Shown here one piece after another: positions 26,937 to 42,785 of a stretch of 64,000 nucleotides of DNA (within the stretch, counting starts at the first letter, position 1; the number at the start of each line of letters is the position of its first letter). The stretch covers positions 128,001 to 192,000 of the forward strand of contig CAWCDG010000005.1 of assembly GCA_963794325.1 (NCBI GenBank), given 5' to 3'. Source of the stretch: an uncultured delta proteobacterium. GTDB taxonomy: Bacteria; Desulfobacterota; Binatia; Binatales; Binataceae. The position numbers were made by a program, and so were the translations under genes. The notes under the pieces were generated by a model, which was given only the letters and a program-made list of their open reading frames with translations, made no database searches and was not told the origin of the DNA.

Positions 26937-29210
26937 TTACGCGGCTTGCTTGGTTTCGATTGCCAGGCTCTCTTCCGCGATCGATCCGCGCTTCGAGAAC
27001 AATACCGCGATCGCCAGCGCGATGATCGACACGACCACGATTGCGACGCGCAACGTCGTCACGCCGCTGAGCTCGATCGTCGTGAACGGCGCCGCCAGAA
27101 TCGCAACCAGGTTCATCACCTTGATCATCGGGTTCAACGCCGGGCCCGCCGTATCCTTGAACGGATCGCCGACCGTGTCGCCCACCACCGACGCCTTGTG
27201 CACGTCGGTGCCCTTGCCGCCGAGGAAACCGTCTTCGACTTTTTTCTTGGCGTTATCCCAGTTGGCACCCGCATTCGACATGAACACCGCCATCAACTGG
27301 CCCGTCAGGATGGTGCCGCCGAGGAATCCACCGAGCGCGCCCGCGCCGAGGCCGAAGCCGACCAGCAGCGGCGAGAAGATTGCGAGGATTCCGGGGCCGA
27401 GCAGTTCTTTCTGCGACGCCGCCGTCACGATATCGACACACGCGCTGTAGTCGGGCAGCTCTTTGCCCTCCATGATTCCCGGATGCTCGCGAAGCTGACG
27501 GCGCACCTCGAACACGATCTGATACGCCGCGCGGCTGACCGCTTTAATCGCGAACGAGCTGAACAGGAACGGCACCGCGCCGCCGATCATCAGGCCGACG
27601 AACACGGTCGGCATATTGATCTGCACGCCAATCGATCCGAGATGCGCCTCATCTATAAACGACCGGAACAGCGAGACCGCCGCAAGCACCGCCGTGGCAA
27701 TCGCGAGGCCCTTGGTAAGCGCCTTGGTGGTGTTGCCAATCGCGTCCATCCACGACAGCGTCTTCGACGCCTCCTCCTGATGGATTCCGGCCATCTCGAA
27801 GATGCCATGCGCGTTGTCGGTGATCGGTCCGTAGGTATCCATCGCGAGGATGTAGCCCGTGGTCGTCAGCAGGCCGAGTCCGGTCAGCGCGATTCCGTAA
27901 AACTGCAGCGCGAGCGACTCGTGGAAAATCGCCATCGCGCCGATGATCGCGGCCGCAATCACCAGCAGCGCCCACACCGACGACTCGAGTCCCTCCGCCA
28001 TGCCCGACAGGATCAATGTCGCCGGGCCGGTCCGCGCCGCCATCGCGGTCTCCGTGACCGGGCCCTTGTCCGGATGCGTAAAATAGTTCGTCAGCCACAG
28101 CGTCACGACCGCGAGAAGAATTCCGAGCGACGCGCAGCATGCGAAGCGCCAGTCGGTCGCTCCGGTGCGCGGGTCGTCGAGGTAAAGATAGTTCACGACG
28201 AAGAATCCAATCACCGATGCGACCGCCGAGGTCATGTACCCAATATTGATCGGGCGCATCGGGTCGAGCATTTTGCCCGCCGGTACGCGCACCGCCATGA
28301 TTCCGATAATCGACGAGAACACGCCGACGCCGCGCAGTATCAGCGCGAACATGATCAGCTTGACCGCGAACATGCCCGCGTATTGCCCGTAGGCCGCGAT
28401 AAAGTCCGACTCCTGCAGCGCGTACGCCGCCAGAATGATCGCCGCGACCAGCGTCACCTCGTACGACTCGAACACGTCAGCCGCCATGCCAGCGCAGTCG
28501 CCGACGTTGTCGCCAACGTTATCGGCGATCGTCGCGGGATTGCGCGGGTCATCCTCCGGTAGATCCTGCTCGATCTTGCCGACCAGGTCGCCGCCTACGT
28601 CAGCCGCCTTGGTGTAGATTCCGCCGCCGACGCGCATGAACAATGCCGCCAGCGATCCACCGAAGCCGAAGCCGACCAGGACCTTCATCGCGTTCTCGCG
28701 GAAGACCAAAAAGATGATGGTCGCGCCGAGCAATCCCAGCCCAACCGTGAACATGCCCGAGACGCCGCCCGCCTTGAATGCGAGTTCCATCGCGTCCTTG
28801 AAGCTGGTGAGCGCGGCGTTGGCGCTGCGGACGTTGCCCTTGACCGCGAGCCACATCCCGACGTAGCCGGCGCCGTATGATGCGGCGACACCCATCAGGA
28901 ATGCAATCGAGATTCCCAGCGGCAGGTACAGGCCCTGGTAAACGTTGCGGTACATGAAAAAGAGCGCGAAAAAAATCGCGCCGACGAACCAGATCATGGT
29001 TTTGACCTGGCGTCCGAGGTAGGCCATCGCGCCGACCTCGATCGCATCGGACACGTCGGTCAGTGATTTAGGTCCGGGGTCGGCGGCCAGCACTACGCGG
29101 ATCAACACGACACCGTAGGCCAGCGCGACCAGCGCCGAGACCAGCACCAGCCACAGGATCATGACCTGTCCGCTGGTTAAAGTGGGCAGAACGATATTCG
29201 CTTCGCTCAT
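26937..29210 (-). CDS. hppA: Membrane pyrophosphatase, K+-independent H+-pumping type
   Basis: GGGIYTKAADVGGDLVGKIE, DNVGDNVGD, GDPFKDTAGP; GNTTKA has the Lys diagnostic of K+-independence. Confidence 0.93.
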   Translation of the reverse strand: MSEANIVLPTLTSGQVMILWLVLVSALVALAYGVVLIRVVLAADPGPKSLTDVSDAIEVGAMAYLGRQVKTMIWFVGAIFFALFFMYRNVYQGLYLPLGISIAFLMGVAASYGAGYVGMWLAVKGNVRSANAALTSFKDAMELAFKAGGVSGMFTVGLGLLGATIIFLVFRENAMKVLVGFGFGGSLAALFMRVGGGIYTKAADVGGDLVGKIEQDLPEDDPRNPATIADNVGDNVGDCAGMAADVFESYEVTLVAAIILAAYALQESDFIAAYGQYAGMFAVKLIMFALILRGVGVFSSIIGIMAVRVPAGKMLDPMRPINIGYMTSAVASVIGFFVVNYLYLDDPRTGATDWRFACCASLGILLAVVTLWLTNYFTHPDKGPVTETAMAARTGPATLILSGMAEGLESSVWALLVIAAAIIGAMAIFHESLALQFYGIALTGLGLLTTTGYILAMDTYGPITDNAHGIFEMAGIHQEEASKTLSWMDAIGNTTKALTKGLAIATAVLAAVSLFRSFIDEAHLGSIGVQINMPTVFVGLMIGGAVPFLFSSFAIKAVSRAAYQIVFEVRRQLREHPGIMEGKELPDYSACVDIVTAASQKELLGPGILAIFSPLLVGFGLGAGALGGFLGGTILTGQLMAVFMSNAGANWDNAKKKVEDGFLGGKGTDVHKASVVGDTVGDPFKDTAGPALNPMIKVMNLVAILAAPFTTIELSGVTTLRVAIVVVSIIALAIAVLFSKRGSIAEESLAIETKQAA

Positions 29211-29391
29211 CGCAATTCCGATTCTCCTGAAAAAAGTCGAGGTTTGATTTAAGAGCGGCGCCCGCCGCGCAATTGAATCAGTGAATACGCCGATAATAGC
29301 CGGGCGATCACCCTCTGGGTATCTGGCGCAGTCTAGGTTTTCCTGACCGCGAAGTCCAGTAATCGGCGGGGTGGGCCTTCGGAAGAAGAAG

Positions 29392-29419
29392 AGGCCCCGG
29401 CGCGACGGCCGGGGCCTTT
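29392..29419. terminator. GC-rich hairpin, probable terminator of the beta-helix gene pair
   Basis: AGGCCCCGGC-GCGACG-GCCGGGGCCT followed on the minus strand by CTTCTTCTT. Confidence 0.65.
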
Positions 29420-29446
29420 GAGATCCTGACGATTCAAACCTTCAGA

Positions 29447-30421
29447 TCACGGCGCTTTCAGGTTCACGTTGGCGCACGGTCCATCGACAACCGTCTGCAC
29501 CAGGTTGGTGCCAGAGTTTTTCTGCGCTTTCAGCGATGCAGTGCTGCCGCGGCAATTCATAGTTACGCCGTCGGAGTGATTCTTGCTCGCAGTCACGCCG
29601 GAAATGATGCCAAATCTTCCGGGGCCGAAATCGATACCGGTCCCCGCGTTGCCGGTCGATTTGCTCGCCGTGACCATGTTCTCGCTGCTCGACGGGAACT
29701 CGATTCCGTCGTCCCCATTGCCGGATATGGTTGATTTGATAACGCCATTGTCGTCGCTGGCCAGTTCGACGCCGACGGAGGAGTTTTTCTGGATTTTGCT
29801 GCTAACCACGAAGCTGCAGCAATCTGACATTTCCACGCCGACGCCGGTGTTTTTGCTGACCGTGCTTCCGACCAACGTATTGCAGCAGCTCGTGATAACG
29901 ATTCCGCCACCGTGGTTACCGTTAGCCTGGACCTTGGTCAAACTGCTGTCGTCCGAGAGTATGTGGATGCCGACGCCACCGTTGTTGTTCGAGGTGACCG
30001 AGCTCAGCGTGTTGCAACACTCTTTGATGAGGATACCGTCACCGGTGTTATTCGAGGTATTGAGGTTGGAAATTATCGCACTGCCCGAGGTGGGCAGGCT
30101 GACGCCCGAGGCAAAGTTGCGGATTTTGCCGTTGGCGATGATTGCGTTATCGCGATCGCCGCCGTCGTCGACGATCCCGGAACCGCTGCCGTTGCCAGTA
30201 ATGGTCTTTCCATTCAAATCGATCGCTACATTGTCTGCGGCAATTATCAGGCAGTCGGTGGTGGCGCTAAGGTTGGTGGTCAGCACGTAATTCCCCGGCG
30301 CCGCGAGCGTTCCGCACATGGACACCATGGTGCTTGCCGTCGCGCGCCCGCAGAGGCCGCCAATCAGCAACATCGCAAATAGCGCAGCGGTAAGCCGCCG
30401 CGCCGAAAACTCGATATTCAT
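29447..30421 (-). CDS. Secreted right-handed parallel beta-helix repeat protein with CC/DD motifs
   Basis: Signal peptide (..RATA), IDLNGKTITG, about 22-aa repeats ending NxGxG; GGAGG upstream of ATG 30421. Confidence 0.82.
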   Translation of the reverse strand: MNIEFSARRLTAALFAMLLIGGLCGRATASTMVSMCGTLAAPGNYVLTTNLSATTDCLIIAADNVAIDLNGKTITGNGSGSGIVDDGGDRDNAIIANGKIRNFASGVSLPTSGSAIISNLNTSNNTGDGILIKECCNTLSSVTSNNNGGVGIHILSDDSSLTKVQANGNHGGGIVITSCCNTLVGSTVSKNTGVGVEMSDCCSFVVSSKIQKNSSVGVELASDDNGVIKSTISGNGDDGIEFPSSSENMVTASKSTGNAGTGIDFGPGRFGIISGVTASKNHSDGVTMNCRGSTASLKAQKNSGTNLVQTVVDGPCANVNLKAP

Positions 30422-30521
30422 AAGTCCCCTCCCGTTGATGATCCCGAACGGTTCATGCATACGCCCCGGGATCAGGTCCGAACATCTGATGCATTGGTTC
30501 ATCGTCTTCAGCCCAGCCGTC

Positions 30522-31490
30522 CTAATTCAGCTTGTTGTTCAGCTGGGTGCAGGTGCCGCCAGAGGTCGACAATGGACCGCCGTTGTTGTTTCTGGTCGTC
30601 AGGCCAGTGATCGCGCCCGGACATTCCACGCTGGCGCCCGCGCCCTGATTTCCACTGGCTACACTGCTCGTGATCTGATTGTCAGTGCCGGCCAGCAAAA
30701 TCCCGTTGCCGGTGTTGCTGCTGGCGTTGGTGCGGGTGACAAGATTGTCGCTGTTGGTGAGATTCGCTCCGTTGCCGTGGTTAAGCGCGACAGTGCTTTC
30801 GATGACGAAGTTGCAGCATCCCGACAGGGCGACACCGTCGGCACTGTTGCTCTGCACTTTGCTGGAAATCACGAAGTTGCAGCAATCGTTTCCAGACACC
30901 CCGGTCGCGCCATTGCCGGAAACGGTACTGTTGGAGACGGTTGTGCAACAACCAGTCGCGATTATGCCGCCGCCTGGGCCGTTGTGGTTCACCTGAACGT
31001 TGTTCAGCGTGTAGCAGCAACTCAGGGCCATAATTCCGGTGGTGCCGTTACTGTTCGTCGTTACGGAATCGAGCGTGCCACAGCACTCACCCACCAGGAT
31101 CCCGGTCGCGGTGTTATTTGACGAATCGACGTTGCGGATCACCACACAGCATGAGGTGTCGAGTCCGATGCCGACGCTGAAGTTGCGAATCTTGCCGTTC
31201 GCAATTGCCATCGACTCGAAGTTGCCGCCGCCGTCGGAGATTCCGTCGCCGGTGCCGTTACCTGTGATGGTGTGCCCTTTCATGTCGAGCGAAACGCCTT
31301 CGCTGCCGATGACGATACAGGTACCCGTCGATGTCAGATTCTTCGTCAGGAAATAATTCCCCGCCGCAGACAACGTCCCGCAGGCTGATACTGCGGTGTC
31401 GGCGCGGGATGGCGACGAGGCCAACACCAGCAGCGTCAACGCGCCCAATACGCCGACAGCGTATCCTCTGAAACCCCTCTCGAATGACAT
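30522..31490 (-). CDS. Secreted right-handed parallel beta-helix repeat protein with six CC motifs
   Basis: Signal peptide (..SRA), LDMKGHTITG, 22-23-aa repeats; clear paralog of the downstream gene. Confidence 0.82.
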   Translation of the reverse strand: MSFERGFRGYAVGVLGALTLLVLASSPSRADTAVSACGTLSAAGNYFLTKNLTSTGTCIVIGSEGVSLDMKGHTITGNGTGDGISDGGGNFESMAIANGKIRNFSVGIGLDTSCCVVIRNVDSSNNTATGILVGECCGTLDSVTTNSNGTTGIMALSCCYTLNNVQVNHNGPGGGIIATGCCTTVSNSTVSGNGATGVSGNDCCNFVISSKVQSNSADGVALSGCCNFVIESTVALNHGNGANLTNSDNLVTRTNASSNTGNGILLAGTDNQITSSVASGNQGAGASVECPGAITGLTTRNNNGGPLSTSGGTCTQLNNKLN

Positions 31491-31630
31491 AGTTCCTCCC
31501 CTGACCGCTCTGCGGAAATTGGCGCTAAATCGAATTTCGTAGAAGCGCACGAAGGTGAAGCGAACTCGAATGCGCCGCGAGCGGTCGCCAGAGCTTATGC
31601 GCGACGTCGAGGCGATTGCAACTCAGATAA

Positions 31631-32482
31631 CTAAATGTAGAGTGCAGCGATTTTCTTGAGCATCACTTCTGTGTTCTCGAATGTCAGTTCTCCCAGGCCT
31701 GCGACGAAGCGGCCCGCGCCGGATTGCGCGAACTCCTTCAGGCCTTCCTGTACTGTTGCGCGGTCGCCGCGGATGCCGCCCATGATGGTGATATCGAGGT
31801 CCGCGAAATTTCTGCCGATGGCGCTGCATTCGCGCTTGAGTTCGTCGACGCGAGTCTTCAACTGCGCCGGGTTCAGTGCGATCGGGCACCATCCGTCGGC
31901 CCATTTCGCTACACGCTTGAGTGCGTTCTTGTCGAGGCTGCCGATCAGAACAGGAGGCCCTGATTTCTGCGCCGGCTTGGGCATCGACTTCACCGGCGGG
32001 AACTTGACGTACTTGCCCTCGAACGACGCGGCGTCTTCGGTCCACAATTTGCGCATCGCGGCGACAATCTCGGCGGTCTCGGTCCATCTATGGGGGAAAT
32101 CGACGCCGAACAGATCGCTCTCTTCGCGCAGCCATCCTGCGCCGATGCCGAACAGCACGCGGCCGCCCGAGTATGCGTCCAGCGTCGCGAACTGCTTGGC
32201 GAGCGCGAGAGGTTCATGCTCGGGCACGAGGCAGATACCGGTGGCGAGTTTGAGATTCTTGGTGACGGCGGCGGCCATGCTGAGGGAGATCATCTGATCG
32301 GCCATCGTGAAGTACTGCGGCGGAATCGGACCGCCGGTGGGGAATAGCTGCTTGGGATTCGCGGGCATCGCGGGATGCTCAGGGACCCAGATCGATTCGA
32401 AGCCGAGCGATTCGGCGACGCGCGCGAATTCCGCGGGGTGAGCATTCTTGCCGGTGAAGGGAGTGAGTAGTCCGATTTTCAT
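31631..32482 (-). CDS. LLM class (probable F420-dependent) oxidoreductase
   Basis: GFESIWVPEH, LAKQFATLD, SGGRVLFGIGAGW, PKPAQ. Confidence 0.88.
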   Translation of the reverse strand: MKIGLLTPFTGKNAHPAEFARVAESLGFESIWVPEHPAMPANPKQLFPTGGPIPPQYFTMADQMISLSMAAAVTKNLKLATGICLVPEHEPLALAKQFATLDAYSGGRVLFGIGAGWLREESDLFGVDFPHRWTETAEIVAAMRKLWTEDAASFEGKYVKFPPVKSMPKPAQKSGPPVLIGSLDKNALKRVAKWADGWCPIALNPAQLKTRVDELKRECSAIGRNFADLDITIMGGIRGDRATVQEGLKEFAQSGAGRFVAGLGELTFENTEVMLKKIAALYI

Positions 32483-32509
32483 GGTGGCCTCCTCGTTTCT
32501 AAGGAAGAA

Positions 32510-32800
32510 AAGATCCCCGATTCTTCGTGCGCTCAAGAATGACACAAAAAAAAGAGGACACAAGAAATCGACGTTGCTCAGATGTCGCTTGAATCCAGAA
32601 CCCTCACCGCCGGCGGCTACGCCCGCCGGCCGCCTCTCCCGTGAAATGACGGGCGAGGTAAGATTCGCTGCGCTCAGGAGGACACAAAAAAAGTTCTCAC
32701 GGGGACGAAGTCCCGCATCCTGTCTTTTTCACTGGGTGCAGGGGTCACCCCTGCCCAAGGGTGTGGAACCCACGGTGGGTTCCGCATTCAATCAAGTGAT
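32510..32800. repeat. Mosaic of repeats (family E fragments, CCCTCACC hairpin, full family B copy at 32701-32798)
   Basis: GATTCTTCGTGCGCTCAAGAATGACA; CCCTCACC...CCTCTCCC; GGGACGAAGTCCC...GGGTGCAGGGGTCACCCCTGCC...TTCAATCAAG. Confidence 0.72.
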
Positions 32801-32810
32801 TTACCCTTCC

Positions 32811-33287
32811 CTACTCCCAGCCGAAGAAATCTTTTGCGGCGATGAATTTTGCGACGCCGGCGGCTTCGCCTGCCAGGCGGTCGACTTCCTGATCGCCGAC
32901 CATGGTTGAGGACGTCAGATCGACGCCGTACATGTCGGCTAGCTCCGTGATCATGCCGCCTTTCGGCTTGCGGCATGCGCAGTGGTCGTCGTCGGTGTGC
33001 GGGCAGATTTGCCATGCCGTCAGAATGCCGCCGAGCTGGTCGTCGAGATCCTCCAATGCGGCTTCCACGTTTTCCGCTTTAAGGCGGCCGCGCGTGATTC
33101 CCGCCTGGTTGGTGACGACAAACATCAGATGGTTGTGCATGGGGCGGAGTTTTTCGGCTACGCCGGGCAGCAGTTCGATTACGATGTTGCCGTTGGCGTC
33201 GAGCGGAATTTCGCGCGACTCGTTGAGCTTGACGAGAGTGCCGCCGAGATCGAAAAACAGCGCCGAGTTGCCATTCGGATTGGCCAT
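32811..33287 (-). CDS. HAD-IIIA phosphatase (GmhB/HisB-N-like)
   Basis: FFDLGGT, VTNQAG, CPHxxxxxCxCRKP Zn motif, MVGD. Confidence 0.85.
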   Translation of the reverse strand: MANPNGNSALFFDLGGTLVKLNESREIPLDANGNIVIELLPGVAEKLRPMHNHLMFVVTNQAGITRGRLKAENVEAALEDLDDQLGGILTAWQICPHTDDDHCACRKPKGGMITELADMYGVDLTSSTMVGDQEVDRLAGEAAGVAKFIAAKDFFGWE

Positions 33288-33303
33288 TGAAAAAAGCCTT
33301 CGC

Positions 33304-34686
33304 CTAGGCGTGGCGCCAGTCAACGTGGTCGCGAACGTGGGCGAACACTTCGTCCAGGATCTCGACACCCGCCTCGGCTTGCGCTTCAGTGATCACGAGC
33401 GACGGGTTGATTCGAATCTTGGGGAAGTAGGCCATCGTGACCAGCCCACGCTTGAGGCATTCGGCGAAGATCAGCTCGGTGACCTTCTTGCCGAGCAACT
33501 CCTTGGTTTCGAGATCGCGCACCAGCTCGACGCCGATCAGGAGACCCTTGCCGCGGACGTCGCCGATGAACTCGTATTTTTCTTTTAGCTGTACGAGCCG
33601 CGACAGCATCATCGCGCCAACTTTGCGCGAGTTCTCGACCAGGTGCTCGCGCTGAATCGTGCCGATCGTTTCCGAGACCGCGACTGCCGCGAGCGGATTT
33701 CCGCCGTAGCTCGACGATGACGCGCTCGGCTTGCCGAACGGTTCCGCCTTCCCCAGCTCGTCGCTCAGCAGGACTCCCGACACCGGGAAGCCCGAGCCCA
33801 TCCCCTTGCCGACGGTGACGATATCGGGGCGGGTGCCGCTGTGCTCGACGCCCCACCATTTTCCGGTGCGCCCAAAGCCGGTGATCATTTCGTCGGCGAT
33901 CAGCAGCGCGCCGAAATCCTTGGCGACGGATTTAACCGCAGGCAGCCAGTCGTCGGGCGGGATGACGTTGCCGGCGGTGCCCTGCATCGGCTCGGCGACG
34001 ATCGCGGCGAGCGACCCGCCGCTGCTCATCTTGATTTGCTGGCGCGCGAAATCGACGCAGTACAGTCCGCAGTCGGGATACTTCAGCTTGAAGGGGCATC
34101 GATAGCAGTCGGCGTAGGGAACCGTGTACTGGCCGCCTTGCAATGGGCCGTAGCCTTGCTTCGATTCGTCACCGATGAGTCCGAGCACGCCGCCGGTCTT
34201 GCCATGGAAGCCGCCCCAGAAGCTGACAACTTCATGATGGCCGGTTGCGGAACGCGCGAGCCGGAGCGCGGCTTCGACCGCCTCCGCGCCGCCGCTATAT
34301 AGATGTGCGCGATTGAGTCCCGCGGGCGCGACTTCGGCCAGCGCCTTGAAGGCGGCCGCGCGCTCTTTGGTCGCGAAGGTGCCGACCGTCAGCCGCGCCG
34401 CCTGTTTGGACAGCGCCTGCGCCATCCCGGGATGCGCATGGCCGAGACTGGCGACCGCGACGCCCGCAAAGAAATCGACGTAGGTGTTGCCGTCGGCGTC
34501 GGTGAGGGTCGCGCCTTCGCCGTGGTCGAATGCGAGGCCGGCCAGTAGCGAAATTCGCTGGCGGCCGGGGGCGATATACTTCTGTTCGAGGTCGAAGATC
34601 TCTTTCGATTTTGGTCCCGGAACTGCGGTCTTGATCGAAGGAAGTTTTCCGTTGTTACTGTTACCAGTGGTTGTCGTGGTCTTCAA
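33304..34686 (-). CDS. Class III PLP-dependent aminotransferase
   Basis: SGGAEAVE, GFHGKT, EPMQG, LIADEMITGFGRTG, GKGMGSG, YGGNP. Confidence 0.93.
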   Translation of the reverse strand: MKTTTTTGNSNNGKLPSIKTAVPGPKSKEIFDLEQKYIAPGRQRISLLAGLAFDHGEGATLTDADGNTYVDFFAGVAVASLGHAHPGMAQALSKQAARLTVGTFATKERAAAFKALAEVAPAGLNRAHLYSGGAEAVEAALRLARSATGHHEVVSFWGGFHGKTGGVLGLIGDESKQGYGPLQGGQYTVPYADCYRCPFKLKYPDCGLYCVDFARQQIKMSSGGSLAAIVAEPMQGTAGNVIPPDDWLPAVKSVAKDFGALLIADEMITGFGRTGKWWGVEHSGTRPDIVTVGKGMGSGFPVSGVLLSDELGKAEPFGKPSASSSSYGGNPLAAVAVSETIGTIQREHLVENSRKVGAMMLSRLVQLKEKYEFIGDVRGKGLLIGVELVRDLETKELLGKKVTELIFAECLKRGLVTMAYFPKIRINPSLVITEAQAEAGVEILDEVFAHVRDHVDWRHA

Positions 34687-34727
34687 TTGATGGCGGTCCG
34701 AATCCTTGTTTGAATTTCCGGCGCGGT

Positions 34728-35555
34728 CTAACGCGGGCGGCCGAGCAGACTTATCGCACGGCGCGCGATCGCGCGAGCAGCCGGCGCGCGCACCCGACTG
34801 TAGCTGGGCCAGTCGTTAAAATCGATAATCGCAAACTGATCGCCGCTCAAGACCGCGTCTCCGCCCCATGCGCCCAAGCCCAGCGCCCCGGCTGCCGCGG
34901 AAGCCGCTTCCGACAACGCGCGGACACAGGCCTCGGGGATTTCCTTTTCGTTGTCCTCGGGATGCACGCTGAAATGAGAGCCGCCGCTGACGCCGTAAAA
35001 TTTTATGACGCGGCCGACGACCTCCTGCTGGAGGTAGGCGAAGCGGATTCCTCGACGCGCGAAATCGGCGAGGATCGTTTCGATTTCGGTGCGATCGGCG
35101 GCGCGCTGCACGTCCTCGGGACCGAGCGCGTGCAAGTCCCCGCGCTTGACGAATACGCCCGCCGACAAATCCAGTCCCGCGAGCTTACGCGAGTCGAGTG
35201 GCTCTTCGGCCGGGACTAGCGCGCCTGGCGGAGTCGGCACTCCGGCGCTTTCGAGTCCGGCCGCGAGCAAGTCGCGGTAGCAATTGCGAATCGAGAGCGC
35301 GGAATTAATCGGGATTGCGCCGGCCTGCTCGACTTCGGCCAGCCGCTTGAGAGCGCGCGGCCCCTGGCACATCGGCAGCACGAGATCGGCGCGGATTGGC
35401 GGGCCTGACGCGAAGCTGATCGCGTCGACGGTCTGGACCTCGACGCCCTCGCGCTTCAACTCCGCCATCGTGGCGTCGAGAATCGCGGCGTCGGCCTCGA
35501 CCTTCCCGGGTGAAAACTCGGGTTCCCGATAAATTCCCAAAGCTCGATGGCTCAT
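34728..35555 (-). CDS. ATP-grasp fold protein
   Basis: FVKRGD, QQEVVGRVIKFYGV, WGGDAV, IIDFNDWPSY. Confidence 0.75.
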   Translation of the reverse strand: MSHRALGIYREPEFSPGKVEADAAILDATMAELKREGVEVQTVDAISFASGPPIRADLVLPMCQGPRALKRLAEVEQAGAIPINSALSIRNCYRDLLAAGLESAGVPTPPGALVPAEEPLDSRKLAGLDLSAGVFVKRGDLHALGPEDVQRAADRTEIETILADFARRGIRFAYLQQEVVGRVIKFYGVSGGSHFSVHPEDNEKEIPEACVRALSEAASAAAGALGLGAWGGDAVLSGDQFAIIDFNDWPSYSRVRAPAARAIARRAISLLGRPR

Positions 35556-36277
35556 GGCATCTTCCGTATTGCCAGGCGCGCGGCGTCGAGGTCTGACGCT
35601 TCATCCACGTCGATCGAACCTTCAAGCTCGATCGCATCCAGGCGCATCCCGCGTTCGATGATCAGCGCCAGGAAGCGACGGAGCGCATCGAGTCCCGCGC
35701 GTCGCGCGTCGGCGGCCAAGTCGAAAACCCTGGTCGACAGAACATAGAGTCCCGCCGTGACCATAGAAGTCTGACCTTCGCCCAGCCGCAGGATCAAGCC
35801 ATTCTGTGTTACATCGGCGAAAAGCGGCTTGGCCTCGCCGCGCCATTGCGTGACGGCCAGCACGCCAGCGAAATTTTTATCGCCACATTCCTCGATTTTT
35901 CGAATCGACTCATTAACAAAACTCACCAATTCCATCTGTGGAATTACAGCGTCCACGGTCGATGCGATAAACCATCCGGGCTCGAGCAGCTCGCCGAGTG
36001 CGAGCATCGTTTCCATCGAGTTGGCAGTATCGCGAACGACCAGGCAGAGCGCCGGTGGAATCTCGAGCACCATTTCCTTCGCGCGGCGCGCCGTTTCGGA
36101 ATTGATCACCGCGACGACCGATGACGCACCAGCGTCGAGGAGCGCGCGCGCTTGCCGCGAGAGCATCGCCTCGCCGCCGAGCTGGACGAGCGGCTTGGGG
36201 ATGTCGTCGCGGGTCGAGATGCGCAAACGATCGCCTCGGCCGGCGGCGATGATCGCTCCTTGAAGTGCGATCACCAT
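35552..36277 (-). CDS. NTP transferase (nucleotidyltransferase)
   Basis: IIAAGRGDRL, PKPLV, IDVDEASD. Confidence 0.88.
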   Translation of the reverse strand: MVIALQGAIIAAGRGDRLRISTRDDIPKPLVQLGGEAMLSRQARALLDAGASSVVAVINSETARRAKEMVLEIPPALCLVVRDTANSMETMLALGELLEPGWFIASTVDAVIPQMELVSFVNESIRKIEECGDKNFAGVLAVTQWRGEAKPLFADVTQNGLILRLGEGQTSMVTAGLYVLSTRVFDLAADARRAGLDALRRFLALIIERGMRLDAIELEGSIDVDEASDLDAARLAIRKMP

Positions 36278-36999
36278 TCGATCAGCGCAACTTCGTCGAT
36301 ACTTCGGATGGTGACGTCGGCGTCGGCGGAATCTTCATCGCGTCGCGGCTCGCTGCATAGCCAGACGGTGCGCATGCCAAGCTTGCGTGCAGGTGCACAA
36401 TCCTTGCTGAGCGAATCGCCGATCATTGCAACCGATTCGGGCGCACATTGTAATTTTTTCAGTGCGGCCTGGTAGATTCCAACTTCGGGTTTAAAAATTT
36501 TGACGCTCGACGAATCAGCGACTGCCGCGAAGAATCGATTCAGCCGCGCTTCTTCGAGGACGCGATCGAGATTTCCGTAGAAGTTGGACACGATGCCCAT
36601 CTTGAAACGGTCTTTTAATGGACCGACGACTTCACGGCTGTGCGAGAGACCGGCCGACGTCTCGCGGACGAAGGATTTGGTGACAGCCTCGACGAATCGA
36701 TGACGCCCGCCCGCGCCGGAATCGTCGAGTACCTTGCGCAGCGGATCGGGACCGCTTTTCCGCAGGTATTCGAATTGATGGCCGACGAGGAAGCGCACCA
36801 GGTCGGTCATCCCGAAGCGCGCGACGACTCTGGTGGCGCCGTAGCCGATTCGCGTCGCATGATCGAAGGCCGGGTCGAGTTCGACGCGCGAGATTTCGAT
36901 TCCGGCGTCGCGGTAACTGGCCAGAAAGCGGTCAAGCCAATGCGCAGGCCCGTCAAGCGTGCCGCCGAAATCGAACAGGAGAGCCGTGATCGTGGCCAT
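36271..36999 (-). CDS. HAD-IA family hydrolase
   Basis: LFDFGGTLD, IVSNF, FKPEVGIY, MIGDSLSKD. Confidence 0.88.
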   Translation of the reverse strand: MATITALLFDFGGTLDGPAHWLDRFLASYRDAGIEISRVELDPAFDHATRIGYGATRVVARFGMTDLVRFLVGHQFEYLRKSGPDPLRKVLDDSGAGGRHRFVEAVTKSFVRETSAGLSHSREVVGPLKDRFKMGIVSNFYGNLDRVLEEARLNRFFAAVADSSSVKIFKPEVGIYQAALKKLQCAPESVAMIGDSLSKDCAPARKLGMRTVWLCSEPRRDEDSADADVTIRSIDEVALIEW

Positions 37000-37173
37000 G
37001 AAGGGCCAAGTCTATCAGCCGGATTGAGCATCCTCCAGATTCGGTTTCCATCGTTGCTGACCGATCAAACAGGCACTTTTTTGGATAAGAAAAAGACTGG
37101 CCTCGGATGAAAGACGAACTCATAATCAGGGAGTGAGGTTAGTAGCACTACTACTTCCTCTGGCATTACCGCT

Positions 37174-38412
37174 GTGTTACGGTGGCGCGAGCAACCGAGA
37201 TGGGGGAAACCGGGTTTTAACGAGACGCCATTGATTGAAACTGCTCTAATCGCTGCACCTGACCGCGCGGATAATGCGGTCTTCGGACGCCCGCTTTTGG
37301 AGCGGCTGATGATCAACTGCGAGCGTGCCGGGATTAGACGGTTTGTGGTGGCAGCACCACACAATCGTCATCCGGATGTCGCGCGCGCGATGGGCCGATT
37401 CAAAAATTTGAACACAGTCTCGATGGTCGAATCGTTCGGCGAGATTCTAAATGGCGGTGCGCAGAATTTGGGCATCGACGCGTCGTCGCCGTGCGTGTCG
37501 TTTTCGGGGAACCTGGTATTCGCGAAGTCGCAGCTGAAACGAATACTCGACGCGCATGCCTCCAATCCGCAGTCGATGCATCGGACCGTAAGCGCCGATC
37601 ATGACCACGGCGGGGAAATCGTGACCGGTCCGATCGGCGAGATTCTAAAGAGCGGCGGCATCTCGAACACGGTGTCGATGCCGTCGGCGAGCCTGCTGCC
37701 GTTCGCGCTGAACGGACGCCCTCAGGATCGCGAGGAGGCCGAGCTGCGGCTGGCGAAGTCGATTCGCGAGGAATCGGCGCATAAGGACGCTCCGATGGCG
37801 CGATGGGTGGACCGCAAGATTTCGTGGCGAATCAGCTACTGGCTGGCAACGCAGACGCGCGCCACGCCGAACATGGTCACGGTTACGAATACGATGTTCG
37901 GGCTTTTGTGCGCGTGGATGTTCTCGGTGCCGAATTACTGGATGCGGCTGTTCGCGGCGATTTTCTTTTTGATTTCGATCACGATCGACGGGGTTGACGG
38001 AGAATTGGCGCGGCTCAAAATGATCGAGAGCGATTTCGGCGGCAAGCTCGATGTCTTTACCGACAATATCGTGCATGCCGGGGTATTCGTCGGGCTGCTG
38101 GTCGGATGCTACCGCGTCGAATATAGCCGCGCTTACCTGTATCTGATCCCGATACTACTCGGCGGATTTGCGGCGTGTGCTTATGCGACGTGGCGCGCTT
38201 TCGAAATAAAGGGCGAGCAGGCGGCCCAGTGGCTGGACAAAGTTGATCGATGGAGCGGGCGCGATTTCGCGTACTTGCTCGTGGTATTAGCCTTAATCAA
38301 TCGGATAGAGTTCTTCGCGTGGGGAACAGCCTTCGGCAGCTACGTGTTTGCCGCAGTGCTGATATGGATCACCGGCCAAACCGAATCGTCAATGAAGACT
38401 GAGAGCTTGTAG
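37174..38412 (+). CDS. CDP-alcohol phosphotransferase with degenerate N-terminal nucleotidyltransferase-like domain (start may be TTG 37231)
   Basis: TPNMVT and DGVDGELARLKMIESDFGGKLDVFTD signature; N-terminal GRPLLERL...AGIRRFVV. Confidence 0.9.
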   Translation: MLRWREQPRWGKPGFNETPLIETALIAAPDRADNAVFGRPLLERLMINCERAGIRRFVVAAPHNRHPDVARAMGRFKNLNTVSMVESFGEILNGGAQNLGIDASSPCVSFSGNLVFAKSQLKRILDAHASNPQSMHRTVSADHDHGGEIVTGPIGEILKSGGISNTVSMPSASLLPFALNGRPQDREEAELRLAKSIREESAHKDAPMARWVDRKISWRISYWLATQTRATPNMVTVTNTMFGLLCAWMFSVPNYWMRLFAAIFFLISITIDGVDGELARLKMIESDFGGKLDVFTDNIVHAGVFVGLLVGCYRVEYSRAYLYLIPILLGGFAACAYATWRAFEIKGEQAAQWLDKVDRWSGRDFAYLLVVLALINRIEFFAWGTAFGSYVFAAVLIWITGQTESSMKTESL

Positions 38413-38443
38413 GAAGGAACTGAGGCCTGCAGGCGGAGGAAGT

Positions 38444-39775
38444 ATGAACGGCAAGAAGCCACGAATTCTTTTGGTGCAACCAACCACCGTCCATCTGGAC
38501 GGCACGCCGCACAAGACGCGGTGGCGGCTGATCATGGGGCTGATGATTCCGCTGATGGCGGGACTCACGCCTGACGATTACGACGTGACGCTGTGCGACG
38601 AGCGCCTCGAGAACATCAACTTCGACGGCGGATGGGACCTGGTCGGCATGACGACGACGATTGGCGCGTCGTTGCGCGCGTACCAGCTCGGCGACGAGTT
38701 CCGCAAACGCGGCATCCCGGTCGTGTTCGGCGGCTTCCATGCGACGCTGCAGACCGAAGAAGCGCTGCATCATTGCGACGCAGTCGTGAAGGGCGAGGCC
38801 GACCTGGTCTGGCCCGAGCTGCTGCAGGATTGGCGCGATGGCAAGCTCAAGCAGGTTTACAAGGCCGACAAGGTCCACGATCTGAAGAACCTGCCGCGCC
38901 CGCGTCACGAGCTGCTCAAACTGAATCGCTACCTGTTCAAGGCGGTGCCGGTGCAGGCGAGCCGCGGATGCCCGTACCGATGCTCGTTCTGCGAGATCCC
39001 GGTGTTCTACGACGGCGCCTATCGCACGCGGCCGATCGAGGACATCGTCGAAGAGATCAAGCAGGTCATGAAGGTGACCGGCTTCAAGCGCTTCCAGTTT
39101 ATCGACGATCAGATCACCGGCAAGCACAAGTTCGCGCGCGAGCTGTTCAAGGCGCTCGAGCCACTCAACATCCGCTTCTCATGCTTGTGGACGATCAATT
39201 CGAATCACGACGACGAGCTGCTCGACCTGGCGGCCAAGGCGGGAATCTTCCACGTCAATATCGGCGTGGAATCGATCAGCCAGGACAGCCTGCTGTCGAT
39301 GAACAAGATTCAGAATCACGCGAACCAATACAAGAAGCTGCTCAAGAAGATGGAGAAATACGGGATCTACTACTCGCTGAATTTCCTGTTCGGGCTGGAA
39401 GAGGATCGTCCAGGGGTCTTCGACGACACGCTGAAGTTCCTGCACGAGGTCAAAGCGCCCGAGGCGTTCTTCAACACCGTCACGCCGCGCGTCGGCACGC
39501 CGATGCGCACGCAGCTCGAGAACGAAGGCCGCGTGATTATCCCTGACGCGGATTTGTACACGAATAACTTCCGTTGCATGTTCGTGCCCAAGAACATGTC
39601 GCCGCAGGAAGTCGAAGAAGGCGTGTGGCGATGCACCAAGGAGTTCTACTCGCTGAAGTCGATGTTCCGCCGGCTGCTGATGCCACCGGGCAAGTTCACC
39701 TGGCAGGGCCTGACCGAGAACATGCTCTTCTACTGGGGTGCGAAGCGTCAGATCGATCCGGTTGACTACTATTAG
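38444..39775 (+). CDS. B12-binding domain radical SAM protein
   Basis: GGFHAT, GEAD, SRGCPYRCSFC, FIDD, IGVES. Confidence 0.92.
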   Translation: MNGKKPRILLVQPTTVHLDGTPHKTRWRLIMGLMIPLMAGLTPDDYDVTLCDERLENINFDGGWDLVGMTTTIGASLRAYQLGDEFRKRGIPVVFGGFHATLQTEEALHHCDAVVKGEADLVWPELLQDWRDGKLKQVYKADKVHDLKNLPRPRHELLKLNRYLFKAVPVQASRGCPYRCSFCEIPVFYDGAYRTRPIEDIVEEIKQVMKVTGFKRFQFIDDQITGKHKFARELFKALEPLNIRFSCLWTINSNHDDELLDLAAKAGIFHVNIGVESISQDSLLSMNKIQNHANQYKKLLKKMEKYGIYYSLNFLFGLEEDRPGVFDDTLKFLHEVKAPEAFFNTVTPRVGTPMRTQLENEGRVIIPDADLYTNNFRCMFVPKNMSPQEVEEGVWRCTKEFYSLKSMFRRLLMPPGKFTWQGLTENMLFYWGAKRQIDPVDYY

Positions 39776-40460: not shown

Positions 40461-41318
40461 ATGATCGAAGCAAAGTACACTCTGGACTACAAACTGATCG
40501 GTACTCAAATCGATCGACTGCTCGAAAGTGTCGTCAATAGGGCTGAGCGAGAATGGCCAAAATCATCGGACCCACCCACTAACGAGGCTTATACGGTAAT
40601 GATTGGCACTTTGCGGAGTGTTGCGAATACCTTTAAGACGGTCCGATACTTGTGCGCAGAAAAATCTCCAGATTGGCGTCACCGTCCGGAGCTCGCTCTC
40701 GCAACACCGCCGCTCGTGCGAACAATTCTCGATTCGTTCTACACGGTTGTTTTTGTATTTGAGGATATTCGTCCTCGTTCGGAATGGTACATGCATTCGG
40801 GATGGAGGGAACTTGCGGAGTATGTTGATCGAGTCAAGCGTGACTACGGTTCAGATCCAGTCTGGAAGGAATACTTAGACGAAACCGTCCCCAGATTGGA
40901 GCAACTTAGAATTATGATCGGTAGGCCGGAAAGCGAGCTAAGGAAGACGATTTGGTGGCCGACACCTCCGCAAATGAAAAACTTTGCTTTGCGCGCTGAT
41001 ACCATCAAGTTTTTCGAATATTTGCGCGATTGGTATTACAAAGAGTTCTCAGCTGTTTCGCATCTTAGCTTGCCAGGTCTCATTCAATCCGTAACGCCGT
41101 TAATGCAAGGTGTCGATGTAGCGAAGGTCGAACAGTTACGCGGTTACTACTTTAAGCAGGTCACAATTTTGTTGATGGCTATCTATTCCGAGTTTGAAGC
41201 TGAGTTAACGCCCGGGGTCTCGGCGGATCTCAAATACGTGTGGCAAATGTTGCACCAGCACTATCCGTTCGCCAAAGAGATTTATCAGCACCGCAACTAC
41301 GATTCCCGACTCAGTTGA
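40461..41318 (+). CDS. AT-richer hypothetical helical protein (DUF5677-like)
   Basis: Long ORF with atypical codon usage; RTILD and YKEFSAVSH motifs. Confidence 0.65.
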   Translation: MIEAKYTLDYKLIGTQIDRLLESVVNRAEREWPKSSDPPTNEAYTVMIGTLRSVANTFKTVRYLCAEKSPDWRHRPELALATPPLVRTILDSFYTVVFVFEDIRPRSEWYMHSGWRELAEYVDRVKRDYGSDPVWKEYLDETVPRLEQLRIMIGRPESELRKTIWWPTPPQMKNFALRADTIKFFEYLRDWYYKEFSAVSHLSLPGLIQSVTPLMQGVDVAKVEQLRGYYFKQVTILLMAIYSEFEAELTPGVSADLKYVWQMLHQHYPFAKEIYQHRNYDSRLS

Positions 41319-41430: not shown

Positions 41431-42785
41431 GTACAGACCGGGAGGATCGGTAACAGAATAGACCGGCAGGATGGGTAACAGATTGAATGCTACGGCAGGA
41501 GGAGCGAAGCGATGCCGTGGCGGGAGGTCTGTTCGATGGACGAGAAGATGCGGTTGATGGTGGCGCTGTCGGCCGAAGAGGAGAGCGTGACGGAGCTGTG
41601 CGAGGACTTCGGCATCAGCCGCAAGACCGCGTACAAGTGGTGGGCGCGTTACCGGCAGTTCGGCCCTGAGGGACTGAAGGAACGATCGCACGCGCCGGCG
41701 CTGGTGCCATGGGCGATATGCGACGCCCAGGCCGAGGCGATCATCGCAGTGCGCCGGGCGCATCCGAGTTGGGGACCGAAGAAGCTGCGCGCCAGACTCA
41801 GCCAAAGCGCGCCCAACCAGAGCTGGCCGGCGCCGAACACCATCGGAGAGTTGCTGCGCCGCGAACAACTCAGCCAGCCGCGCAAGCGGCGGCGCAGCGC
41901 GCGACCGTCGCCGATCCCCTTGCGCACGGCATTGGCGCCCAACGACATCTGGTGTACCGATTTCAAGGGCCCGTTCCATACCCAGGACGGCATGCGCTGC
42001 GATCCCTTCACTCTGACCGACGCCTACAGCCGCTACCTGTTATGCGTCAAGGCGGTCAATAAAGCTGGCTACGACGACTGCCGCAGCGAGCTGGAGCGGG
42101 TGTTTCGGGAGTACGGCCTGCCACGCGCGATCCGCTCGGATAACGGTCCACCGTTCGCCTCGAGCGGGGTGACCGGACTCAGTCGGCTGTCGGTGTGGTG
42201 GCTAAAGCTCGGCATCATGCCGGAGCGGATCGAACCGGGCAGGCCAGAGCAGAACGGGCGGCACGAACGGATGCACAAGACGCTCAAGGCCGAATGCGCC
42301 AGTCCGCCGCAAGCCGACCGTGGCTCGCAGCAGAATCGCTTCGATCAGTTCCGCGAAGAGTTCAATCAGCAGCGGCCACACGAGGCGCTGGGTCAGACCG
42401 CGCCGGCGACGCACTATACACCGTCGCCGCGCAGCTATCCGTCCAGGCTCGAGGATCCCGCCTATCCGGCCGACTACCAGCCGCGGCGCGTGCGCCACAC
42501 CGGCGATATCAAATGGCAGGGGGAATCGGTCTTCCTGAGCGAGACTTGAGCAATGAGGTAGTAGGAATAGTTGAAACCGATGAGGGAGATGCGGTGGCCT
42601 ACTACGGACCGCTGATACTCGGGCTCATCGACGGCGTCAGCTTAAAACTGCGCCGCCTGCAGCCTGCCAGCAGTTCCACAGTCGGGCGAGGGGGGCAGCC
42701 CCCCTCGCGCTCCTCCCCGTCAAACTCAGAAATAGTGTTACCTATCATGCCGGTCTAAAGTGTTACCGATCATCCCGGTCGCTCA
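41431..42785 (+). mobile_element. IS481-family insertion sequence
   Basis: Imperfect terminal inverted repeats GACCGGGAgGATCGGTAACA, each with a tandem inner copy; CGGG flanks both ends (possible target duplication). Confidence 0.85.
41512..42758 (+). CDS. IS481-family DDE transposase, frameshift near 42546
   Basis: MPW start, ISRKTAYKW HTH, WCTDFKG, SDNGPPF, QNGRHERMH, RPHEAL; C-terminus SNEVVGIVE continues in another frame to 42758. Confidence 0.88.

Follow-up and report, generated by a model that had tools for sequence, protein, structure and literature searches.

Di-myo-inositol phosphate (DIP) is a solute of hyperthermophiles, and in IPCT/DIPPS enzymes a cyclitol phosphate is activated with cytidine triphosphate (CTP) before a cytidine diphosphate (CDP)-alcohol transfer. 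We know of no CDP-alcohol chemistry in hopanoid biosynthesis. In Bacteroides vulgatus and Prevotella, Heaver et al. (2022; PMC9246714) described a putative alternative inositol lipid cluster, for which they proposed CDP-inositol-based lipid synthesis, stated to be unconfirmed, and which they linked to inositol-ceramide producers. Their text names a nucleoside triphosphate (NTP) transferase, a phosphotransferase, and a HAD protein in this cluster; supplements aside, it mentions neither "ATP-grasp" nor the intervening locus tags. Here, we analysed a 64,000-nucleotide stretch (positions 128,001–192,000) of contig CAWCDG010000005.1 (hereafter, the window) from an uncultured delta proteobacterium of the Binataceae, in which seven close-packed genes at positions 32811–39775 form two divergent operons. 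We propose with moderate confidence that this cluster represents, in Binataceae, a widespread pathway that would use nucleotide activation to equip a membrane lipid, perhaps a hopanoid, with a phospho-aminocyclitol headgroup.

Searching species-representative genomes yielded 79 loci, of which 63 were Binataceae-like (58–88% identity) and 16 were from Bacteroidales (31–37%). All seven genes were present in identical order and on identical strands in 55 of the 63 Binataceae-like loci, and the remaining eight were broken by contig ends on the side without genes. Co-occurrence in other genomes, which had been set beforehand as a test of the cluster, therefore held. Judged by homology, four of the genes, encoding HAD-IA, the NTP transferase, the ATP-grasp protein, and the AF2299/DIPPS-type phosphotransferase, are a core module found in several phyla. 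Fused proteins were also detected, joining the NTP transferase to the ATP-grasp protein (seven proteins, one a Planctomycetota record), HAD to both of these (one protein, an Elusimicrobiota record), or the ATP-grasp protein to the CDP-alcohol phosphotransferase (one protein of 700 aa). Such fusions suggest that the products of the core genes act jointly.

Searches by tblastn of the 16 loci from Bacteroidales detected an NTP transferase and a HAD gene beside the ATP-grasp gene in 11 loci each and a phosphotransferase in three; Pfam confirmed the phosphotransferase in both of the loci scanned. On the basis of homology and of the published text, supplements aside, the core module in Bacteroidales is the alternative inositol lipid cluster of Heaver et al. 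The sequence-only reading, an earlier interpretation of the window made from its letters, had presented the cluster as undescribed. This needs correction, since the four-gene core corresponds to that published but unconfirmed cluster, as far as its text describes it.

The CDP-alcohol phosphotransferase (37174–38412, plus strand) matched PF01066 at residues 231–387. Its catalytic motif, Dx2DGx2ARx8Gx3Dx3D, is intact in the transmembrane domain, where it reads IDGVDGELARLKMIESDFGGKLDVFTD, and D272, G273, D275, G276, A279, R280, G289, and D293 were invariant among 16 sequences. The start codon is probably a TTG about 19 codons in, as most relatives are called at 394 aa. Among PDB sequences, the protein matched AF2299 (2.4e-14) and IPCT/DIPPS (3.7e-6). 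A model of the whole protein (predicted local distance difference test score, pLDDT, 76) gave IPCT-DIPPS (4mnd) and AF2299 (4o6n/4o6m) as its best Foldseek matches at E ~3e-8, and the 4mnd match spanned the whole phosphotransferase (452 columns, E 2.5e-8). When the N-terminal domain (N-domain) alone was searched, the cytidylyltransferases KdsB, IspD, and TarI were matched at E ~3e-3. The glycine-rich GxGxR motif is a nucleotidyltransferase signature; the N-domain reads ALIAAPDRADNAVFGRPLLE and does not contain it. These models indicate that the phosphotransferase is of the AF2299/IPCT-DIPPS type, with a degenerate nucleotidyltransferase-fold N-domain and a transmembrane catalytic domain. A "degenerate NTP-transferase-like N-domain" had been proposed from the letters, and the whole-protein model, the N-domain fold matches, and the missing GxGxR motif all bear this out.

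The stand-alone NTP transferase (35552–36277, minus strand; MobA-like/NTP_transferase, PF12804 at 8.9e-9, and PF00483) keeps the signature as AAGRGDRL. Its only near-full-length NCBIfam match was the IPCT half of NF041135, the bifunctional IPCT/DIPPS model (residues 7–234), and this match was weak (9.4e-8). From its sequence, this enzyme is predicted to be the cytidylyltransferase for the headgroup phosphate. The phosphotransferase scored 71.8 bits with NF041135 against a cut-off of 580, so that its membership in this family fails. The IPCT/DIPPS-type logic suggested earlier, in which an NTP transferase acts together with a CDP-alcohol phosphotransferase, fits these results, with AF2299 and IPCT-DIPPS as the best matches.

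An alternative is ordinary phosphatidylinositol synthesis, in which the phosphotransferase would be a divergent phosphatidylinositol-phosphate (PIP) synthase using CDP-diacylglycerol and inositol phosphate, a HAD protein would dephosphorylate the product, and the aminotransferase, ATP-grasp, and NTP transferase genes would have some other purpose. The fold search did return PIP synthases, among which only stand-alone PgsA1 (E 8.5e-4) gives independent support, because 5d92 and 5d91 were deposited as AF2299-PIP synthase fusion chains; weak NCBIfam matches to archaetidylinositol-phosphate and PIP synthases were also obtained. However, the phosphotransferase falls within the AF2299/DIPPS subfamily, whose members carry a cytoplasmic N-domain, rather than among the short PIP synthases; a gene of that short, PIP-synthase-like kind occurs elsewhere in the genome; and the fusions described above physically join the NTP transferase and the ATP-grasp protein to HAD and to the phosphotransferase. 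We consider this explanation improbable.

The third core protein, encoded by a 275-aa open reading frame (ORF) at 34728–35555 (minus strand), had no Pfam, NCBIfam, or PDB-sequence match, and in a protein-atlas search its matches were limited to Binatota clusters without names and a cluster of which 14% of the members carried RimK. An AlphaFold2 model built from an alignment of 89 homologues had a pLDDT of 96.6 and showed a full three-domain ATP-grasp fold. VIA Z scores were 17.5–21.9 against more than 25 ATP-grasp enzymes over 243–268 aligned residues: 21.9 for RimK (4iwx), 21.6 for LysX/ArgX (5k2m), ~20 for D-Ala-D-Ala ligases, 18.9 for ITPK1 (2qb5), and 18.8 for PPIP5K2 (3t54). Foldseek matched the model to D-Ala-D-Ala ligases at E ~1e-13. 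From this model, we are confident that the protein has an ATP-grasp fold. The ATP-grasp call of the sequence-only reading was thus borne out by the fold and not by profile search. At E ≤ 0.001, the family comprised 859 representative clusters; the stricter limit of E ≤ 1e-30 left 96. The window protein did not match the RimK/LysX-type profile TIGR00768 at E ≤ 0.01; a homologue from another locus (L173) scored 45.1 bits with it against a cut-off of 143.4.

In the simplest view, proposed from pathway logic only, the ATP-grasp protein could be a kinase that places the phosphate in the right position after dephosphorylation. Re-phosphorylation of a free (amino)cyclitol would explain why phosphatase-like, kinase-like, and cytidylyltransferase parts are fused in some organisms, and also why the gene is retained in Bacteroidales, whose cluster is without the aminotransferase. 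Alternatively, as its modelled fold suggests, the protein may be a carboxylate-amine ligase, although ITPK1 and PPIP5K2 score just 3 Z units below that group.

We also considered three other pathways. F420 biosynthesis, suggested by a CofC-like NTP transferase, a RimK-like ATP-grasp protein, and an F420-dependent neighbour, was rejected because no CofD/CofE-type gene is present and the accompanying genes are lipid genes and one for a CDP-alcohol phosphotransferase. A LysW-type amino-group carrier pathway, with a LysX-like ATP-grasp protein and a class III aminotransferase, was rejected because the carrier, kinase, and reductase genes are missing. A phosphonate lipid was likewise rejected: as noted previously, there is no phosphoenolpyruvate (PEP) mutase in the window, the sole PEP_mutase match being sub-threshold and inside PanB.

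Canonical HAD phosphatases carry motif I as DxDx(T/V), in which the first Asp is the nucleophile and the second (Asp+2) is the general acid/base. HAD-IA (36271–36999, minus strand; PF13419 at 2.6e-15, with NCBIfam matches as well), the first gene product of the minus-strand operon, has FDFGGTL at this position, so that the nucleophile is kept and Asp+2 is replaced by Gly. This Gly was invariant in nine distant homologues from several lineages, motif I read D-F/Y-G-G/S/A-T in all 70 tblastn alignments, and the Asp+2 replacement was kept from Binataceae to Bacteroidales and Elusimicrobiota. HAD-IA is homologous to the HAD protein of the Bacteroidales cluster. The second protein, HAD-IIIA (32811–33368, minus strand; GmhB/histidinol-phosphatase-like; TIGR01656 at 86.2 bits against a cut-off of 84.15, and TIGR01662), has DLGGTLV and also lacks Asp+2, with D-L-[GATVC]-G-T in 61 of 61 alignments. 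In the loci that were fetched, it was confined to Binataceae, and by this distribution it is a Binataceae-specific addition. HAD motifs II–IV are present. Because neither of the two has Asp+2, the earlier statement that they remove phosphate is not secure.

The HAD genes bear on another alternative, a soluble phosphodiester compatible solute, perhaps aminated and resembling DIP or glycerophosphoinositol, which DIPPS-like chemistry would produce and whose terminal phosphate a HAD protein would take off. The presence of two HAD genes would suit it, as would the close relationship of the phosphotransferase to IPCT-DIPPS and AF2299, and DIPPS is known to act on soluble substrates. Yet neither HAD protein has Asp+2, the genes next to the module in relatives encode proteins of the membrane and of lipid transport (HpnL-like, RND HpnN-like, and outer-membrane factor), and the Bacteroidetes cluster goes with inositol lipids, according to the text of Heaver et al. 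Moreover, the DNA sequencing runs with at least half of the stretch's sampled words were labelled as soil metagenomes, an origin at odds with a hyperthermophile solute. We regard this as the least probable of the alternatives, and the compatible-solute option offered by the sequence-only reading is disfavoured by the membrane and transport partners.

We also sampled 201 genomes of the window's phylum. The ATP-grasp family was found in 18 of them at E ≤ 1e-10, one through a marginal 76-residue match, and 14 loci were fetched from 12 of these 18 module genomes: 11 non-Binataceae loci, one locus of a second Binataceae genus, and two extra ATP-grasp copies. HAD-IA, NTP transferase, ATP-grasp, and class III aminotransferase genes were consecutive in all 11 non-Binataceae loci, and the AF2299-type phosphotransferase was present in 10. 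The locus of the second Binataceae genus carried all seven genes. The class III (omega-type) pyridoxal phosphate-dependent aminotransferase of the window (33304–34686, minus strand; PF00202 at 1.2e-93) was 52–57% identical to the syntenic copies in the 11 loci, and in 10 of these a Gfo/Idh/MocA oxidoreductase adjoined it. In both oxidoreductase copies examined, the best NCBIfam match was inositol 2-dehydrogenase (~80 bits, below the cut-off); further matches included xylose and levoglucosan dehydrogenases. The aminotransferase, with its catalytic Lys in the context VGKGMG, had no NCBIfam model above cut-off, and its nearest solved structures were archaeal γ-aminobutyrate aminotransferase (GABA-AT)-like enzymes. 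It is predicted to aminate a keto-cyclitol. The earlier guess that amination takes place fits the way in which this gene travels with Gfo/Idh/MocA.

In the source genome, the best match to the Gfo/Idh/MocA enzyme lies on contig C2, separated by a TetR-like gene from hpnH, the second gene downstream. Its position at the hopanoid locus of that contig indicates that the "missing" dehydrogenase exists, outside the window. The synteny of the aminotransferase and the adjoining dehydrogenase also speak against ordinary phosphatidylinositol synthesis; in favour of that alternative, the Bacteroidales version is without the aminotransferase and goes with plain inositol lipids, as far as the published text describes them.

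In one locus (L171; G083:C8:106500-126499), two module copies stood side by side, and a third ATP-grasp copy was on another contig. Between the two module copies were a B12 radical S-adenosylmethionine (SAM) gene, whose product was 40% identical to that of the window, and an HpnL-like gene; a second HpnL-like gene lay upstream of the first copy.

We then examined the link to inositol. The source genome has a single inositol-phosphate synthase gene (G000:C2:89667-90887), standing alone on contig C2, which agrees with the earlier observation that the window contains none. In the 63 loci from Binataceae, no copy was present within a distance of 10 kb. Elsewhere in the phylum, the gene was inside the cluster in one genome (G074), directly after it as a short-type enzyme in two (G088 and G122; PF01658, 120 bits), and within ~2 kb of an ATP-grasp copy in two more (G036 and G121), giving adjacency (a distance of at most ~5 kb from the ATP-grasp gene) in five genomes from four families. 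It also adjoined the module in two of the 16 Bacteroidales loci. PF01658 was detected in 15 of the 18 module genomes and in 106 of the 183 others, and the three module genomes without it were 62–85% complete. Detection depended on the model used, PF07994 at E ≤ 1e-20 being found in 25 of the 201 genomes (6 of the 18 module genomes) and PF01658 in 121; the short-type enzyme of ~370–390 aa was missed by the former at this threshold. Adjacency is the stronger argument for inositol because the synthase is common in the phylum. The cyclitol suggested by the sequence-only reading fits this pattern. In the literature, we found no paper linking ATP-grasp enzymes to CDP-inositol or inosamine to lipids.

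The same evidence bears on whether the activated alcohol is derived from inositol at all. It might instead be an amino-alditol or amino-sugar phosphate, for example 1-amino-1-deoxy-pentitol phosphate formed from a pentose phosphate by transamination, leading to an aminopentanetetrol-type phospholipid. The typical substrates of class III aminotransferases are terminal aldehydes or amines, Gfo/Idh/MocA enzymes accept sugars too, as the xylose and levoglucosan dehydrogenase matches illustrate, and the inositol-phosphate synthase is both outside the window and common in the phylum. Against this stand the synthase genes in or beside the module in the five genomes and in Bacteroidales, and the dehydrogenase, for which inositol 2-dehydrogenase was the best match in both copies. 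On balance, a non-inositol alcohol seems quite unlikely.

On these grounds, the following route to a phospho-aminocyclitol lipid can be proposed. The genome's inositol-phosphate synthase would make myo-inositol phosphate, the Gfo/Idh/MocA enzyme would oxidise the cyclitol, and the class III enzyme would transaminate the keto-cyclitol to an inosamine-type aminocyclitol. The nucleotidyltransferase would activate the cyclitol phosphate with CTP to form a CDP-cyclitol, and the CDP-alcohol phosphotransferase would move the phospho-aminocyclitol onto a hydroxyl of a membrane lipid, either diacylglycerol or an extended hopanoid (bacteriohopanepolyol). Oxidation and amination may come before or after CTP activation. 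The polarity may also be reversed, such that a lipid alcohol would be phosphorylated, activated as its cytidine monophosphate (CMP) derivative, and joined to a cyclitol phosphate; the product class would be the same.

Several points weigh against this route. It is deduced from gene content, the organism is uncultured, and both the product and the enzyme activities are predicted. The window contains neither an inositol-phosphate synthase gene nor a Gfo/Idh/MocA gene, each of these lying on contig C2, and the synthase is so common in the phylum (121 of 201 genomes) that its co-occurrence is weak evidence. The genome also has a weak PIP-synthase-like gene elsewhere, a possible alternative user of inositol phosphate. 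To our knowledge, class III is not an inosose-aminating family, the known ones being DegT-type. The missing Asp+2 suggests that HAD-IA and HAD-IIIA are possibly not simple phosphomonoesterases. The ATP-grasp model is nearer to carboxylate-amine ligases (Z 21.9 and 21.6) than to ITPK1 (18.9), which makes the kinase role the weakest step, and one homologue weakly matches the RimK family. With regard to a hopanoid acceptor, 17 of 52 Binataceae loci do not run on into hpnH. Finally, the co-occurrence counts come from related, non-independent genomes and overstate the case.

With respect to hopanoids, squalene-hopene cyclase was present in 14 of the 18 module genomes and in 27 of the 183 others; the four module genomes without it were three incomplete genomes and the marginal match. 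Among the 11 non-Binataceae loci, nine carried an LPG_synthase_TM protein, whose sole NCBIfam match was HpnL (121–125 bits against a cut-off of 195.65), and four carried an RND/MMPL transporter; the one scanned against NCBIfam matched HpnN best (546 bits against 751.85). An outer-membrane factor gene stood beside the RND/MMPL transporter in all three of these four loci that were scanned with Pfam, and HpnH was adjacent to the module in three of the 11. In Binataceae, the usual downstream order was HAD-IIIA, F420-dependent luciferase-like monooxygenase (LLM) oxidoreductase, Gfo/Idh/MocA, TetR, and HpnH, followed further on by the cyclase. Where the downstream flank extended for at least 6 kb, as in 52 of the Binataceae loci, Gfo/Idh/MocA was found in 36 and HpnH in 35.

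In the source genome, the hopanoid locus is apart from the cluster, on contig C2 (L191; G000:C2:59396-71698). Its genes encode, in order, Gfo/Idh/MocA, TetR, HpnH (377 bits, above the cut-off), a truncated prenyl-diphosphate synthase ORF, an IolM-like Zn-dehydrogenase, squalene-hopene cyclase, Dxr, HpnC, HpnD, HpnE, and HpnA. A lineage-specific rearrangement split the hopanoid locus from the cluster in this genome. The hopanoid suggestion of the sequence-only reading is thus supported by the HpnH, HpnL-like, and HpnN-like neighbours and the 35 of 52 loci, while in the window genome itself the locus stands on another contig. As to HpnO, the aminotransferase is of class III and is contiguous with hopanoid genes in most Binataceae loci but not in the window. 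The third-best NCBIfam match of the C2 Zn-dehydrogenase was scyllo-inosose 3-dehydrogenase IolM (142 bits, below the cut-off). In the window, the region past the F420-dependent oxidoreductase (26937–31550) holds two tandem NosD-like beta-helix genes and a membrane proton pyrophosphatase; this pyrophosphatase arrangement was common to only two of the 63 Binataceae loci, most of which have Gfo/Idh/MocA-TetR-HpnH there. HpnL is described as uncharacterised in the text of a 2025 preprint on microsynteny at hopanoid loci, which, supplements aside, mentions neither phosphatidyltransferases nor ATP-grasp. We found no paper linking Binatia to hopanoids.

These neighbours would also suit hopanoid side-chain tailoring without a cyclitol, in which an HpnO-type aminotransferase would form aminobacteriohopanetriol, the ATP-grasp protein would acylate the amine or phosphorylate the polyol, and a simple phospho-alcohol would then be added by the NTP transferase and the phosphotransferase. 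Module and hopanoid genes adjoin one another, the cyclase is found in most module-bearing genomes, and the ATP-grasp fold is nearest to carboxylate-amine ligases. This explanation is at variance with the occurrence of the same core beside inositol-phosphate synthase in Bacteroidales, hosts that make sphingolipids and are not known to make hopanoids, and with the synthase adjacency in five genomes of the phylum. In addition, in a 1.7-Mb genome (G107), a second class III aminotransferase-like gene beside the cyclase could be the HpnO-type enzyme. We assign tailoring without a cyclitol a low probability. The G107 gene, which may encode an HpnO-type enzyme, adjoins the cyclase in locus L192 (G107:C10:1-20000), and its product was 28% identical to the window aminotransferase.

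Returning to the phospho-aminocyclitol headgroup, a more specific form of this reading can be envisaged. The AF2299-type phosphotransferase may place the CDP-activated headgroup on the terminal hydroxyl of bacteriohopanepolyol, giving a phosphodiester composite hopanoid that would be flipped and exported by the HpnL-/HpnN-like partners found in relatives, with the radical SAM enzyme as a new hopanoid tailoring activity shared with Geobacter-type bacteria. We rate this combination as rather unlikely. If true, a phosphodiester-linked composite hopanoid would be a lipid class not yet described.

The B12-binding radical SAM gene (38444–39775, plus strand; PF04055 at 5e-18, with a CX3CX2C motif) matched PF02310 below the cut-off. 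No NCBIfam model was above its cut-off, the scores being 105 bits for BchE, 82 for HpnJ (cut-off 577.6), and 51.5 for HpnR (cut-off 650); HpnP was not among the best 25 of the 30 matches. Orthologues with 53–57% identity were found in Geotalea uraniireducens, Geobacter, Geomonas, Nitrospirota, and Elusimicrobia records, and on two Geotalea-like metagenome contigs the neighbours were unrelated (GGDEF, RNase H-like, and chemoreceptor genes). In the phylum sample, 10 genomes had a copy of at least 44% identity by tblastn. All 10 had squalene-hopene cyclase, and four were without the ATP-grasp module. Among eight further orthologue loci, the cyclase was within 10 kb only in G107. By homology, the radical SAM protein is therefore a separate family that is module-linked only in Binataceae and tracks hopanoid producers rather than the headgroup pathway; it is probably a separate lipid- or hopanoid-tailoring enzyme co-transcribed here. 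The earlier proposal that it modifies the headgroup was not borne out, as its 51–57% identical orthologues stand alone in Geobacter-like contigs and occur without the module. A BtrN-like role as a replacement for the dehydrogenase was rejected for the latter reason and because Gfo/Idh/MocA is in the ancestral Binataceae super-locus. In G107 (L192), a 44% identical orthologue lies ~6 kb from the cyclase.

Within the Binataceae loci, median identity to the window protein was 95.7% for the radical SAM protein, 90.7% for the aminotransferase, 83.3% for ATP-grasp, 83.1% for HAD-IIIA, 80.9% for the NTP transferase, 80.1% for the CDP-alcohol phosphotransferase, and 76.6% for HAD-IA. The radical SAM protein stayed at 90% identity or more where HAD-IA and the NTP transferase dropped to ~50%, and its median compares with 77–83% for four neighbours. 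In one soil metatranscriptome library, contigs of relatives were detected at 88–95% identity, mostly across the radical SAM gene. These were not counted as expression evidence, since contig depth cannot rank genes, the conservation of the radical SAM gene introduces bias, and DNA carry-over is possible.

The minus-strand operon is transcribed in the order HAD-IA, NTP transferase, ATP-grasp, class III aminotransferase, and HAD-IIIA. HAD-IA and NTP transferase genes overlap by 7 nt and NTP transferase and ATP-grasp genes by 4 nt; the remaining intergenic gaps are at most 41 nt, with 31 nt between the phosphotransferase and radical SAM genes. The HAD-IIIA start is likely the ATG at 33287, 16 nt past the aminotransferase stop. 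Together with the Pfam and NCBIfam assignments, these overlaps confirm the seven coupled genes with overlapping stop and start codons that had been read from the letters. None of the cluster's enzymes passed an NCBIfam equivalog cut-off, and their annotation accordingly ends at the family level. The closest named relatives of the window proteins were metagenome-assembled genomes of Candidatus Binatus/Binataceae. The divergent intergenic region between the operons (37000–37173) had no match in a consensus promoter scan or in Rfam, and promoter, terminator, and Rfam scans gave nothing above chance. A terminator-like hairpin at 32717–32698 lies between the HAD-IIIA gene and the F420-dependent LLM-class oxidoreductase gene, and such hairpins are not above chance here.

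That oxidoreductase (31631–32563, minus strand; TIGR03619 at 237.7 bits against a cut-off of 166.9) was the downstream neighbour in 47 of the 63 Binataceae loci and is an optional cluster member. On the other side, the segment 40461–42549 separates the cluster from panC/panB and looks like an insertion. It contains an IS481-family transposase (41512–42549; NF033577 at 221 bits against a cut-off of 224) and a family-less 285-aa ORF (40461–41318), the latter present in only one of the 63 loci. The arrangement in most related loci has no such segment, with panB-panC and a small ORF directly abutting the radical SAM gene.

If the predicted pathway is correct, it would provide a testable gene-to-lipid hypothesis, ATP-grasp included, for the unverified alternative inositol-lipid route of gut Bacteroidetes. 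It would also mean a new amino-cyclitol phospholipid or phospho-hopanoid in abundant uncultured soil and sediment bacteria, a new intact-polar-lipid or hopanoid biomarker, and a suggested substrate for the HpnL family. New enzyme families would include an ATP-grasp protein without a Pfam model, a HAD protein without Asp+2, and a B12 radical SAM protein of squalene-hopene cyclase-bearing genomes.

Compared with known systems, the cluster is most similar to the Bacteroidetes alternative cluster. Homologous NTP transferase, CDP-alcohol phosphotransferase, and HAD genes form one cluster there, and all three are in the window; ATP-grasp homologues of 31–37% identity lie alongside, an inositol-phosphate synthase gene is adjacent in some loci, and an LPG_synthase_TM-type gene is close by in both systems, as far as the text of Heaver et al. 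covers it. In contrast, the Bacteroidetes cluster is without the class III aminotransferase, Gfo/Idh/MocA, HAD-IIIA, and radical SAM genes, and its phosphotransferase is ~310 aa and has no long N-domain. By both sequence and fold, the phosphotransferase matches IPCT/DIPPS and the Archaeoglobus fulgidus protein AF2299 best, the cytoplasmic nucleotidyltransferase-fold N-domain included, and CTP activation followed by CDP-alcohol transfer is common to both systems. Here, however, the N-domain is without the nucleotide-binding signature, the active cytidylyltransferase would be a separate gene product, and the genomic partners are lipid-related.

Likeness to hopanoid genes (HpnH, HpnJ, HpnL, HpnN, and HpnO) lies in the presence of a class III aminotransferase and a B12-type radical SAM protein, whereas the HpnL and HpnN matches are under their cut-offs. 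Scyllo-inosamine formation for streptidine and rhizopine similarly proceeds through a Gfo/Idh/MocA inositol dehydrogenase, then an aminotransferase, and then phosphorylation. That aminotransferase is DegT/StsC-type and not class III, the kinase is not known to be an ATP-grasp enzyme, and the product is an antibiotic or opine precursor and not a lipid headgroup. What is new in the Binataceae cluster would thus be the predicted headgroup, the accessory enzyme families, and possibly the acceptor lipid, on known CDP-alcohol headgroup chemistry.

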